This document shows, piece after piece, positions 2,655 to 19,172 of a stretch of 22,201 nt of DNA. How positions within the stretch are numbered: position 1 is the first letter of the stretch; the number at the start of each line of letters is the position of its first letter. This stretch comes from Candidatus Iainarchaeum sp. (GTDB taxonomy: Archaea; Iainarchaeota; Iainarchaeia; Iainarchaeales; GCA-2688035). The DNA lies in assembly GCA_028713935.1 (NCBI GenBank), contig JAQTNI010000019.1, forward strand, positions 1 to 22,201, in the 5' to 3' direction. The notes below the pieces were generated by a model that was not told the DNA's origin, ran no database searches, and saw only the letters and a list, made by a program, of their open reading frames with translations. A program made the translations under genes and the position numbers.

Positions 2655-2836
2655 GAATATACTAAAAAGAATTTGCAATTCAATTAATATCTTATGGTTG
2701 AATTGTTCAAAGCAGGTTTTTTTGAAAAACTGCCTGAATTTGTATTTTTAATAATTCACTGGAAACCTGCTTCCGAAAATGTATAAAACCGGTATTTGCT
2801 ATTTTTATATTGACTATATTTGAAAGTGGGGTTCAA

Positions 2837-3952
2837 ATGGAGTTTAACACTTATGATGGCGGGATTGTAAGCATAACTGAAAAAGAGCTTGAATGCTTGC
2901 ATTGGAATGAACATTTGTCGATTAGGCAAATAGCAAAAAAGCTGAATATTTGTGCAAGTACTCTTAGAAAAGCAATGGCAAAAAACAATATTTCCAGAAG
3001 GGAAACTGCAAAGAAGATTTTGAACAAACCAACAAAAGAGGTTCTTGAAAAACTCTATTTTGACAGTTCTTTACCTTTAAAAGATATAATCAAAAAATTT
3101 GGCGTTTCTTATTTTACATTTTTTAAATGGCTTAAAGAGTATAATATTCCAAAAAATAGAAGGGCGAAATTAGAGATGCATGCATTTTCTAACAATTCAA
3201 AGGAAAAGGCTTATCTTCAAGGTTTGGTTTTTGGCGATATTCATGCAAGAAAGCATTGTAGGCAGGTAGTTGCTGAATTATCTACAACGCACTCTTCAAT
3301 GATAAACCTTTTTTGTAAAGTGTTTTCAAATTATGGAGTTGTTCGAAAGAGCGCCAAGTATAACAAAAAAACTGGACGGTTTGGCTGGGCGGTTCGTGTT
3401 TCGCTTGATTCTTCATTTGACTTTTTGTTATCAAAGAAAATCGAAGATATTGCTGATGAATACTTTTATTACTTTTTGGCTGGCTTTTTTGATTGTGAAG
3501 GTTGTTTATTCACTTACAATAATCATAATTATATTGGTCTTAGCCTTCTTTTGTACAACTGCAATAAAAATCTTCTTGAGCACATTTTTAAAAAATTAGA
3601 AAAGGACGGTTTTAATCCAAGGTTAAATAAGGCCTCTAGCAAGGGAACAAAAACAAGTGATGGTTATTGTCAAAGAAAAGATTGTTGGTCTGTTAGTTTA
3701 TACGCGAGTGAGGAAGTAAAGCGTCTCTTGGAGTATATGCCTTTTCGGCATGATGAAAGATTAAGAAAGGCGGAATTTGTTTTATCAATTGGCAGCCCAA
3801 AAAAGTGGAAAGATATTGCCAATGATGTAATATCCCTGCGCAACCAAATAAAAGAAGAAGTTAAGATTTCTGTATCCCAAGCGGTCGAACAGTGGAAAAT
3901 AAAACAGGGTGGTTTTGATGAAAGAGGCATTATTCTACAAAAAATTGAATAA
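2837..3952 (+). CDS. free-standing LAGLIDADG-family protein with two N-terminal HTH repeats
   Basis: Two LAGLIDADG motifs (YLQGLVFGDIHA and YFLAGFFDCEGCLF). N-terminal tandem HTH-like repeats (LSIRQIAKKLNICASTLRKAMAKNNI and LPLKDIIKKFGVSYFTFFKWLKEYNI). ATG at 2837 is preferred over the TTG at 2810. A/T-rich TATA-like tract lies just upstream. Confidence 0.8.
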   Translation: MEFNTYDGGIVSITEKELECLHWNEHLSIRQIAKKLNICASTLRKAMAKNNISRRETAKKILNKPTKEVLEKLYFDSSLPLKDIIKKFGVSYFTFFKWLKEYNIPKNRRAKLEMHAFSNNSKEKAYLQGLVFGDIHARKHCRQVVAELSTTHSSMINLFCKVFSNYGVVRKSAKYNKKTGRFGWAVRVSLDSSFDFLLSKKIEDIADEYFYYFLAGFFDCEGCLFTYNNHNYIGLSLLLYNCNKNLLEHIFKKLEKDGFNPRLNKASSKGTKTSDGYCQRKDCWSVSLYASEEVKRLLEYMPFRHDERLRKAEFVLSIGSPKKWKDIANDVISLRNQIKEEVKISVSQAVEQWKIKQGGFDERGIILQKIE

Positions 3953-4919
3953 CAATGCAGTGCAGTGTCAGTTGTGCCCTCATTTTTGCTTTATTGAGGA
4001 AGATAAAAGGGGAAAGTGTGGAGTCAGAGAGAATGTGAGCGGCAAACTCATTTCTTTAGTTTACGAAAAGCTTTGTTCAATTGCAGTTGACCCCATAGAA
4101 AAGAAGCCTTTGTTCCATTTTAAGCCAGGCTCAAAGTGCCTTTCAATTGCAACTGTTGGCTGTAATCTTTCTTGCAGTTTTTGCCAAAATTGGGGAATTT
4201 CGCAGCCGCAAAACAAAGAAATATTTGGGGAGCAGATAAGCGCAGAAAAAGTTGTAGAACTTGCTCTTGAAAAAAATCTTCCAGGCATTGCATATACTTA
4301 CACAGAACCATTAATCGCGATAGAGTTTTACCTCGAAATTATGAAATTCGCTAAAAAGGAAGGGCTTTACAATGTGTGGGTTTCTAATGGATTTTCAAAC
4401 CCCGAGCCAGTAAAGAAAGTAAGCTCTTATTTGGATGCTGTTAACATTGACTTAAAAGGCAACACAAAATTTTACAGTGAACTTTGTGGGGTTCCAACTG
4501 AAAAACCAATTCAAGAAGCATTAAAAATTTACAAAGAACAAGGGGTTTGGATTGAGATTACCAACCTACTAATTCCTGGATTCAATGACAAGCCAGAGCA
4601 GATAAAACAATTAGTTTCCTGGATTAAAGAAAATCTTGGCTATGAAATCCCGCTGCATTTTTCAAGGTTTTTTCCAACCTACAAAATGGCGCAGCTTCCG
4701 GAAACAGATATTTCAAAGCTTGAACGCGCAAAAAAAATTTCTGAATCAGCCGGCTTGGAATTTGTTTTTTTGGGAAATGTGCATGGAAAAGAAAATTCGT
4801 TTTGCCCAGAATGCAAAAGCCTTCTGATTGAAAGGGCGGGTTATTCCGCTGAAACAAAAGGTTTGGACAAAAAAGGCAATTGTGCAAAATGCGGTTACGA
4901 AACAGGAATTGTAATTTGA
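3918..4919 (+). CDS. AmmeMemoRadiSam-system-type radical SAM enzyme
   Basis: N-terminal Cys cluster (CQLCPHFC...GKCGVREN), DPIEKKPLFHFKPGS, and radical SAM CX3CX2C as GCNLSCSFCQNW. C-terminal CPEC...CAKCG. ATG at 3918 overlaps the 3' end of the LAGLIDADG ORF by 35 nt. Confidence 0.85.
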   Translation: MKEALFYKKLNNNAVQCQLCPHFCFIEEDKRGKCGVRENVSGKLISLVYEKLCSIAVDPIEKKPLFHFKPGSKCLSIATVGCNLSCSFCQNWGISQPQNKEIFGEQISAEKVVELALEKNLPGIAYTYTEPLIAIEFYLEIMKFAKKEGLYNVWVSNGFSNPEPVKKVSSYLDAVNIDLKGNTKFYSELCGVPTEKPIQEALKIYKEQGVWIEITNLLIPGFNDKPEQIKQLVSWIKENLGYEIPLHFSRFFPTYKMAQLPETDISKLERAKKISESAGLEFVFLGNVHGKENSFCPECKSLLIERAGYSAETKGLDKKGNCAKCGYETGIVI

Positions 4920-4963: not shown

Positions 4964-5599
4964 ATGGTCTATCGTTTTAGGGCAAGGGAGCAAAAGCCAA
5001 AGCCGAGCGAACCTGTAATACAGTGGATGAGAAAACAGCCGCCTGCATGGCATAAGACAGCCAGACAAAGGATAGAGGGATTCTCCCGCATTAGCCGCGA
5101 AGAAATGGCAGTTTTTAAAAGGCGAGGAATTCCATATAGGATGTTTCCAGCGGCTTTGAAAAAAAGGGCAGAAGGAGTAGAAATCAAAGAGCCAGACGCA
5201 GGTATTCGGTCGATTACACATTCGCATTATAAGGGTCTTGCGGTTCCTTCTCCAGACGATTTAATGAAAGTATTGAAACATTTGCGTGAAAAAAGAATCA
5301 ATAAGTTTCATATTGTAAGAAACAGGGGAAGGACTGTTACGGGTTATTACAGTTTTTCATTTACTAAAAAATTTTTAAACCAGAGTCCGGAACAAATTGA
5401 GCAAATGCTGTCCAAGATTAAGTTGGAAGGCTCATCAGCAATATTCCAAGGTAAAGTTAGGATTTGGTTAAGAACGCTTTTCTCATTAGTTGAAGAAGGG
5501 TATATGAGGAAACACTGTACGCCAATGCCAGAATATAAATTTGATTCAAAAAAACAGGACTTTGTCAAAAAAGGAATAATCGGCAACAAACTTATTTAA
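4964..5599 (+). CDS. orphan protein with a JAMM/MPN+ (RadC-like JAB) metalloprotease motif
   Basis: HSHYKGLAVPSPDD fits H-x-H-x7-S-x2-D exactly (nt 5219-5260). Candidate upstream Glu residues are EE in REEMAVF, about 40 residues before the motif. Downstream INKFHIV...YYSF resembles the RadC pattern (hydrophobic-DHIIIG...YxSF). A TATA-like ATTTTTATTTTT at 4934-4945 sits about 24 nt before ATG 4964, suggesting a leaderless mRNA. Confidence 0.55.
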   Translation: MVYRFRAREQKPKPSEPVIQWMRKQPPAWHKTARQRIEGFSRISREEMAVFKRRGIPYRMFPAALKKRAEGVEIKEPDAGIRSITHSHYKGLAVPSPDDLMKVLKHLREKRINKFHIVRNRGRTVTGYYSFSFTKKFLNQSPEQIEQMLSKIKLEGSSAIFQGKVRIWLRTLFSLVEEGYMRKHCTPMPEYKFDSKKQDFVKKGIIGNKLI

Positions 5600-14889: not shown

Positions 14890-15528
14890 ATGCCTGGAAG
14901 AATCAGCATTCGTGGAGACCATGCAAGAGTAAAAACCCTGAGCAGGCGAAGGCACAGCAGGCTTGGTTTTGATCCAGAGCCAAGGATTGTGCAGCGCAAA
15001 TCCAAGAAAATCCTTGTGCGCAGTTATTCTGTTGCAATGGCTTTGGCGCATATTTTGTACCCGGAAAATTTTCCGAAACTTGTTGCAAGCAGCCTTGACA
15101 GGAAAACCACTTTTTCTGAACAAGTTCAAACCAACAAGAACAGCCACAAAGCAGTAAAATCTTTTTACAGAAGGCTTCCTTACAGAAAGGCTCTTGATAG
15201 TGTGTTTCCGCGCCTAAGAGTTTTGAAAGATTTAAAATACAATCCAAGAAAATACCGTGCACATGAGGAAAAAGTAAAACAAAATGCTATCCCGCTTGCT
15301 GATGAGGTCCTAAGTGAAAGTGGCATTGAAATCAACCCGAAGGCAATGAATATAGGTTTTGCAAAAAATGGTTCGCCGGTTTTTTTTGAAATTACTGGCA
15401 TTTATCCAAAAGTACTGCGTAAAAAAATAGAATCAATGCAGGAAAGCCTGGAAAAAAAACAGGCTATGCAATTGCTTGAAGCAATTGAAGCAGAGGCAAA
15501 AGGCAATGTCTTAATTTTTGTGCATTAG
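14890..15528 (+). CDS. hypothetical basic protein (orphan)
   Basis: 212-aa ORF with no recognised domain. TTATTTAAAAA at 14857-14867 lies about 28 nt before the ATG, suggesting a leaderless mRNA. Divergent from truD. Confidence 0.55.
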   Translation: MPGRISIRGDHARVKTLSRRRHSRLGFDPEPRIVQRKSKKILVRSYSVAMALAHILYPENFPKLVASSLDRKTTFSEQVQTNKNSHKAVKSFYRRLPYRKALDSVFPRLRVLKDLKYNPRKYRAHEEKVKQNAIPLADEVLSESGIEINPKAMNIGFAKNGSPVFFEITGIYPKVLRKKIESMQESLEKKQAMQLLEAIEAEAKGNVLIFVH

Positions 15529-18451: not shown

Positions 18452-18808
18452 TCATCTTGAATGCGCCATTATCGGGCTTTTGTAGGCAATATTTTGTATT
18501 GCTATTGTTGCCGGCACTTGTTCTTTTTCAATTGGCAGGATTATTTTTACAAAAACAGTGCCCTTTTTTTCGATACAGGAAAAAGAAGCGTTTTCAATTT
18601 TGGAAAGCATTTGCCTGGTTATTTTTCTGTCAGTCAAATCCGTAAAATATTTTGATGCATCAAAAATTTCCAAGGCAACAATTTTGCCGTTCTTTTCCAA
18701 ATCAACAACCAATTCCCCAAATTCAATGCTGCCCTTGGATTTTTTGTTTTCATCGTACAAAAAAAGCAGGTCTTCTTCAAAATCATAATCAAGCTTAAAT
18801 TTAGACAT
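18452..18808 (-). CDS. DUF2283-like protein (putative antitoxin partner)
   Basis: KLDYDFEEDLLFLYD...GSIEFGELVVDLEKNGKIVALEIFDASKYF matches the DUF2283 pattern (YDxExDxL...VDxxxxGxIVGIEIxxAS). ATG 18808 overlaps the upstream stop as ATGTCTAA. Confidence 0.6.
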   Translation of the reverse strand: MSKFKLDYDFEEDLLFLYDENKKSKGSIEFGELVVDLEKNGKIVALEIFDASKYFTDLTDRKITRQMLSKIENASFSCIEKKGTVFVKIILPIEKEQVPATIAIQNIAYKSPIMAHSR

Positions 18809-19172
18809 TTCTTTCCACCTTTCTTTGCCAGTCAAGCCTTTGCTTTATAACAGTAATTACAACAATTTTTTGTTCCAAATGATTTATAACTATAACATAA
18901 ACATAAGCGATTTTTTTGAAAGGCACAGACCACAACTTGTATTTTTCAAAAGCCTTTTCTCCAAAGAGAAAAGCCTTGGGAAAATGCTTCGCAGAAGCCT
19001 TTTCCGCAAAAATTTTTTCTGCAAGCTCCAATGCAGCTGGATTTCTGAGATGATTAACCACAATTTCCTTTTCTATTTGCCTTTTTGCCAATCTGAACTC
19101 TGCATGGTTTGTAAAAACAACCGCATAATGGGCAATCTCGCTTAATTTTTCGCGCAAATTTTTGCCATTCAT
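18801..19172 (-). CDS. DUF4258-like protein (putative toxin)
   Basis: VVFTNHAEFRLAKRQI matches the T-x-HA-x2-R-x3-R-x-I signature I associate with DUF4258. 123 aa, translationally coupled to the DUF2283-like ORF. Confidence 0.55.
   Translation of the reverse strand: MNGKNLREKLSEIAHYAVVFTNHAEFRLAKRQIEKEIVVNHLRNPAALELAEKIFAEKASAKHFPKAFLFGEKAFEKYKLWSVPFKKIAYVYVIVINHLEQKIVVITVIKQRLDWQRKVERNV

Follow-up and report, generated by a model that had tools for sequence, protein, structure and literature searches.

The analysed window comprises 22,201 nt of a Candidatus Iainarchaeum sp. genome (assembly GCA_028713935.1, contig JAQTNI010000019.1). The genome, here designated G000, is archaeal, 1.23 Mb in size, distributed over 72 contigs and 93.7% complete, and the window corresponds to its contig C19. 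The gene under study is situated on the plus strand at 4964–5599, and its product is considered here as a candidate member of the JAB/MPN+ (JAMM) superfamily. The open reading frame (ORF) described in the first-pass annotation was found at this position; read from ATG 4964, the open frame comprises 211 codons plus the stop. All residues are numbered according to this 211-aa ORF unless the 190-aa product is named. The more likely coding sequence is the product P0001 of the gene caller, 190 aa from Met22 (5027–5599, +). The start at ATG 5027 is favoured over ATG 4964 because the gene caller picked Met22 and the homologs begin 5–10 residues before the GRKxP stretch. In the nearest same-genus homolog the frame is open just six codons upstream of its own ATG, and that ATG aligns with Met22.

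The JAB/MPN core was assigned to residues 30–133 (5051–5362, +) according to the AlphaFold2 model with DSSP, the structural matches and hhalign. The core contains Glu47, the predicted general base (5102–5104, +), and the JAMM motif at residues 85–100 (5216–5263, +), in which His86, His88 and Asp99 are the predicted Zn ligands and Ser96 the predicted oxyanion/intermediate stabiliser. A helical hairpin of residues 135–177 (5366–5494, +) is inserted in the model after the strand 4/5 hairpin with a predicted local distance difference test score (pLDDT) of 89–97. The C-terminal strands, residues 181–203 (5504–5572, +), carry the family motif T-P-M-P-G-Y-x-F ... F-V-K-K, which reads TPMPEYKF...FVKK in the window protein. 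The N-terminus is basic and proline-rich, as first read; it lacks a hydrophobic segment and begins with the basic GRKxP-type stretch of the family. The protein is presumably cytoplasmic, since it is devoid of a signal peptide.

Residues 85–100 are T-H-S-H-Y-K-G-L-A-V-P-S-P-D-D-L, an exact H-x-H-x7-S-x2-D, as the first-pass annotation had claimed. The upstream Glu candidates mentioned there are Glu46, Glu47 and Glu38, located 39–48 residues before the motif, and the FHIV and YYSF stretches, taken for a hydrophobic strand pattern, fall on two predicted strands, 114–121 and 124–133. The first-pass annotation also held that the motif would rarely occur by chance. The exact motif appeared with a frequency of 2.2e-4 in 200,000 shuffles of the window protein, and 0.05 occurrences per genome were expected from the shuffled ORFs of the whole genome, but the same regular expression matched two other proteins of the genome, an integrase and a radical SAM/SPASM protein. 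Due to these two matches the motif alone is not diagnostic, and the argument therefore rests on the conservation among homologs and on the fold. The same matches speak for an explanation in which the motif occurs by chance in an unrelated or non-coding ORF, or in which the protein is a non-catalytic MPN scaffold.

The AlphaFold2 model, obtained with a 27-sequence alignment, had a pLDDT of 88.8 and a predicted template modelling score (pTM) of 0.81, and residues 1–22 alone were poorly predicted. The first part of the model consists of helix 33–38, strands 49–53, 64–68, 71–74 and 81–88, and helix 97–110. The second part comprises a strand hairpin 114–121/124–133, helices 142–162 and 165–177, and strands 181–187, 191–194 and 199–202. 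Glu47 immediately precedes or begins the first strand, H86 and H88 end strand 81–88, and S96 and D99 open helix 97–110. In the description of the JAB domain, the Glu is in strand 1, the HxH at the end of strand 3 and the Asp in the next helix; the predicted topology matches this description because Glu47, the HxH and Ser96/Asp99 occupy the corresponding elements (PMC3239186). According to the model, the window protein has the deaminase-like alpha+beta MPN fold, with Glu47, His86, His88 and Asp99 at the canonical topological places.

The structural matches were in agreement with this assignment. A Foldseek search against the PDB resulted exclusively in Jab1/MPN domains (Prp8) at E <= 1e-3, with the best E of 2.5e-4, and in AMSH, STAMBPL1 and a Caldiarchaeum Rpn11 homolog at E of about 0.01. 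In the unbiased VIA search of 48,161 chains, 30 of the best 33 rows were JAB/MPN. The best structural matches were BubCD (a Citrobacter protein), AMSH-LP, Sst2, PfJAMM1 and the Caldiarchaeum Rpn11 homolog. The matches cover residues 30 to about 187–190, and the first of the C-terminal strands is aligned with the final strand of the MPN core. Thus, the part formerly described as a C-terminal extension of about 100 aa belongs mostly to the MPN fold.

The protein is neither an orphan nor family-less, as it had been called. A phmmer search of 1.84 billion cluster representatives resulted in 26 proteins at E <= 1e-3, all of them 126–254 aa long and aligned almost end to end. Two further paralogs are encoded in the same genome (C46:3419-4159 and C14:15512-16147), and the family profile has matches at E <= 1e-5 in 78 of the phylum's 214 genomes, frequently with 2–4 matches in a genome. 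Word-indexed protein searches gave only the 190-aa call of the window protein itself with the single sequence and only three proteins with the alignment; the scarcity of matches is attributed to the limited word index. In the source records the family members are named solely "hypothetical protein". Even within the genus they are only about 30% identical. Tandem arrays of four family genes were detected in three genomes, at G076:C25:872-3898 (L063), G096:C85:451-3030 (L062) and G099:C3 (L061:5233-7812). The third copy of the G096 array is truncated to 94–123 aa.

The arrays lie among housekeeping genes, such as FtsZ, ribose-5-P isomerase, an aldolase, an EamA transporter and GNAT acetyltransferases. 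Because of these housekeeping flanks, the idea of a mobile element or a toxin-immunity pair was abandoned; a shared adjacent gene was also absent from the 21 family loci compared. Iainarchaeota, also called Diapherotrites, are a DPANN phylum, and the family has been seen so far only there, as an unnamed, multi-copy and fast-evolving set of proteins. The genome under study is assigned to this phylum by the source names of homologs ("Candidatus Diapherotrites archaeon", "Candidatus ainarchaeum sp.") and by the ESM-Atlas taxa.

The conservation of the motif residues was determined in a first alignment of 27 sequences and in a larger one of 72 sequences from 61 loci. The invariant columns of the 27-sequence alignment were E47, H86, H88, D99, H116 and G127. 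In the larger alignment, D99 and G127 were kept in all 72 sequences, H86 in 71, H88 in 70 and E47 in 68. P95 was found in 65/72, F200 in 60/72 and S96 in 58/72, the other 14 sequences having T, G, A or N at the latter position, and H116 was kept in 30/72. The other conserved features of the family are the basic N-terminal segment GRKxP...K-[ST]-A-K-x-R-I-E and the C-terminal PMPGYxF hairpin. Two frames of 472 and 386 aa, in G171:C50 (L079:751-2166) and G186:C50 (L080:204-1361), respectively, end in the family domain; about 200–290 extra residues precede it, and the frames may be fusions or N-terminal extensions.

These data bear directly on the chance or scaffold explanation. A tandem copy of G023 no longer has the site and carries K-Y-K-A-D at the five catalytic positions, which would be in line with a non-catalytic role. 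However, the catalytic residues hardly vary across 72 sequences that share about 30% identity elsewhere, the model of the fold has high confidence and the profile-profile match described below had clean controls. A scaffold or a chance motif is therefore regarded as very improbable for the window protein.

The sequence link to known JAB proteins was found through Prok-JAB, the sole Pfam family matched by more than one member (4/27 at E <= 1, best E 0.0036). The genome encodes a single canonical Prok-JAB of 127 aa (C4:38531-38806), and this protein together with 20 homologs formed the canonical set for hhalign. Against this set, the 27-sequence family alignment reached a probability of 72.6% and an E of 3.2e-5, and the 72-sequence alignment a probability of 89.5% and an E of 2e-6 over 102 columns with a score of 43.4. 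E47, H86, H88, S96 and D99 were paired with canonical E28, H75, H77, S85 and D88, of which Glu28 is invariant. The reversed and the 30 column-shuffled controls gave scores of 7–17 and probabilities of no more than 0.9%. The family is real and conserved, and its catalytic positions align with those of canonical JAMMs. Two of the conditions that the first-pass annotation had named as refuting, a missing JAB-fold prediction and a lack of conservation of the motif residues among homologs, were put to the test, and both results favoured a JAB enzyme. In our judgement the window protein is probably a highly divergent member of the JAB/MPN+ (JAMM) superfamily with an intact catalytic site.

By homology, His86, His88 and Asp99 would hold one Zn2+, Glu47 would activate the zinc-bound water and Ser96 would stabilise the tetrahedral intermediate. 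The reaction predicted on the same basis is the cleavage of an amide bond, peptide or isopeptide, in a substrate chain bound in extended form. The window protein is likely to be a cytoplasmic Zn-dependent (iso)peptidase, as predicted by homology; our confidence in peptidase rather than nucleic-acid chemistry is much lower than that in the superfamily membership.

Several observations weigh against the assignment to JAMM peptidases. The window protein itself matched Prok-JAB (PF14464) with only 13–14 bits (E 0.03–0.09, residues 62–117), compared with the cut-off of 25. No Pfam or NCBIfam model reached its threshold with the protein, NCBIfam giving no match at all, and the sequence profile search of the PDB resulted only in chance matches at E > 1. 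The loop between the HxH and the Ser is 7 residues long in only 6/72 sequences, the window protein included, with a mode of 12 and a range of 7–25. Neither a ubiquitin-like protein (Ubl) nor an E1 nor any other common adjacent gene was found in the 21 family loci, each about 13 kb long. Moreover, nuclease rather than peptidase activity has been proposed for divergent JAB clades such as RadC and Tox-JAB (PMC3239186, PMC3482391).

Across the 21 loci, residual synteny was detected only between close genomes, and in the absence of a conserved neighbour the loci give no pointer to a partner or a substrate. In the window, the gene directly upstream of the ORF encodes an AmmeMemoRadiSam radical SAM protein (3909–4919). 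The start of this gene is overlapped by that of a LAGLIDADG protein, which is free-standing and bears two helix-turn-helix domains at its N-terminus (2810–3952, +). Further genes of the window encode an intein-bearing aRF1, TruD, diphthamide synthase and an S-layer protein. The gene at 14890–15528 (+) codes for a 212-aa protein that has a basic N-terminus and no annotation. Its homologs in G000:C14 (L019:2433-3023) and G002:C64 (L023:453-1055) are located 3–5 kb from other genes of the JAB family, which may be due to chance, as it concerns 3 of the 21 loci. At 18452–19172 (-) there is an overlapping DUF2283/DUF4258 gene pair, possibly a small toxin-antitoxin pair.

A part of the family carries a putative export signal. 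In 17 of the 72 sequences, an N-terminal [ST]-R-R-x-F-L is followed by a hydrophobic segment, which resembles a twin-arginine (RR) signal, and in 6 of these 17 a Cys stands directly after the hydrophobic segment in a lipobox-like arrangement. The RR loci are G000:C46:3419-4159 (L020), L026, L043-L049, L051-L054, L056, L058, L059 and L067. In a quick maximum-likelihood tree with long branches, the RR sequences fell in one group, as 17 of its 18 rows (approximate likelihood-ratio support, SH-aLRT, 87). This group was sister to a 13-row signal-less group with the window gene and the C14 paralog (SH-aLRT 94). The corresponding twin-arginine translocation (Tat) machinery was searched for as well. 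TatC was found neither in G000 nor in five genomes with RR-clade members, and it reached the cut-off in 13 of the 214 genomes of the phylum. In the case of TatA, no match at the cut-off was obtained in G000, the best having an E of 0.29 and 11.3 bits. Only one further RR-type N-terminus is present in G000 when ORFs of 100 aa or more are considered; it belongs to a protein of about 90–110 aa (C9:76-405, -) with a very clear RR signal, R-R-W-F-L-K-G-L-G-L-G.

The best structural matches of the window protein are Ubl-specific JAMMs, it has the full E/HxH/S/D set, and an E1-like ThiF is encoded elsewhere in the genome (C1:30170-30961). These data would fit a desampylase or an isopeptidase of the deubiquitinase (DUB) type acting on a modifier of the small archaeal modifier protein (SAMP)/Urm1 type, like PfJAMM1, HvJAMM1 and Rpn11. 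Such a role is nevertheless quite doubtful. The genome already has the canonical 127-aa Prok-JAB, and a search for ThiS/MoaD-type Ubls in the genome detected none. A Ubl or E1 partner is absent from the 22-kb window, as first read, and adjoins none of the 21 family loci. The export or anchor signal of the sister clade would place that clade outside the cell, away from Ubl conjugates, and a housekeeping DUB would not be expected in three to five rapidly diverging copies per genome. The label "deubiquitinase-like" is not established, as no Ubl partner was found.

The strongly basic N-terminus leads to another explanation, in which the window protein would be a RadC/Tox-JAB-like enzyme acting on nucleic acids or nucleotides, with the basic tail serving as a nucleic-acid-binding arm. 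DUF4329 is Tox-JAB-2, a divergent JAB clade of polymorphic toxins, nucleocytoplasmic large DNA viruses (NCLDVs) and phages, for which a nuclease role has been proposed (PMC3482391). The BFVD matches included phage "minor capsid proteins" (best E 1.7e-5, TM-score 0.49 by query), NCLDV proteins (iridovirus, mimivirus-like and F317L of African swine fever virus, ASFV) and annotated phage JAB/MPN proteins. The named feature neighbours in the ESM-Atlas were Prok-JAB, DUF4329 and Toxin-JAB1. The NCLDV and "minor capsid" matches and the DUF4329/Toxin-JAB1 leads correspond to the host range and families of Tox-JAB-2 and Tox-JAB-1. The "minor capsid protein" matches may be read more simply as MuF-effector fusions (PMC5512222). 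An ESM-Atlas structure match to Phage_Mu_F clusters was set aside, the Atlas's own model being poor (pLDDT 0.56). PHROGs gave single-member matches only (E 0.005–0.09), one of them to a "minor tail protein" family, and tblastn against 50,697 phage records resulted in no match.

The profile searches did not favour an enzyme of nucleic acids. The RadC Pfam profile remained unmatched at E <= 1 in the 27 members, and the "RadC-like" label of the first-pass annotation is not established. The DUF4329 profile matched 1/27 members with an E of 0.11, and the DUF4329 hidden Markov model found nothing in the genome at E <= 10. The viral/toxin link stays a lead, since the sequence link to DUF4329 could not be demonstrated with these results. 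In addition, no fusion with a helix-hairpin-helix (HhH), helicase, primase or toxin-delivery domain and no immunity-like neighbour was found, and in PMC3239186 and PMC3482391 a nuclease role of RadC-type JABs is put forward only as a hypothesis. Altogether, RadC/Tox-JAB-like chemistry appears rather unlikely for the window protein.

A broader proposal concerns the family as a whole. It may represent a lineage-specific, expanding JAB set of DPANN archaea outside the ubiquitin-like world, in which the RR/lipobox clade would be displayed extracellularly without a detectable Tat, via an unusual export route, and the signal-less copies, the window protein among them, would act intracellularly. The substrates would then be of a new class, either cell-envelope or host-surface peptides or nucleic acid. 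We consider this scenario improbable.

JAB/MPN+ enzymes are best known as isopeptidases of ubiquitin-like proteins. The family is not a new kind of system; it adds to the superfamily a clade that is well defined and, by sequence, catalytically intact, and that the Pfam and NCBIfam models miss. It is split into cytoplasmic-looking and signal-bearing branches in the small-genome Iainarchaeota, and amplification to several copies is expensive for a genome of about 1.2 Mb. With this family, the question of what the non-Ubl JAB enzymes cleave can be put to defined proteins, and it allows the annotation of about 100 "hypothetical proteins" in DPANN genomes.

In comparison with the Ubl-specific JAMM DUBs of eukaryotes and bacteria, namely AMSH-LP (2ZNV), Sst2 (4JXE), Rpn11, CSN5, BRCC36, BubCD (9EA4) and Cap3 (9ILD), the identity is 6–12%. 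No evidence of the Ub-binding Ins-1/Ins-2 or of partner subunits was found in the new family, and its genes do not stand in operons with those of E1/E2/Ubl or of CD-NTase. RadC (PF04002; Chlorobium RadC, 2QLC), a bacterial family, is similar in being a small stand-alone JAB with a P-S-x-x-D and an H-I-type strand after the helix, whereas its usual N-terminal HhH domain is not present in the new family. Tox-JAB-2/DUF4329 (PF14220) and Tox-JAB-1 (PF15659) share the E, H[ST]H, S and D, are likewise divergent from the Ubl-specific JABs, and some of them are secreted. In contrast to these toxins, the new family lacks RHS, MuF or secretion-system N-terminal modules and an immunity gene, and its surroundings are housekeeping genes.

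In the case of the Prok-JAB isopeptidases (PF14464: AfJAMM 1R5X, PfJAMM1 5LD9, HvJAMM1 and the C4 copy), the new family differs in staying below the Pfam threshold and in being about 70 residues longer, due to the basic N-terminal segment, the helical hairpin and the PMPGYxF C-terminal hairpin. It is also multi-copy and arranged in tandem arrays, devoid of the Ubl/E1 context, and has a sister clade with the RR signal. The spacing between the HxH and the Ser is fixed at x7 in canonical JAMMs and varies from 7 to 25 in the new family. The two are alike in the strand after the helix, often with a His (HI/HL), and in the E...HxH...S-x-x-D located at the same secondary-structure positions.
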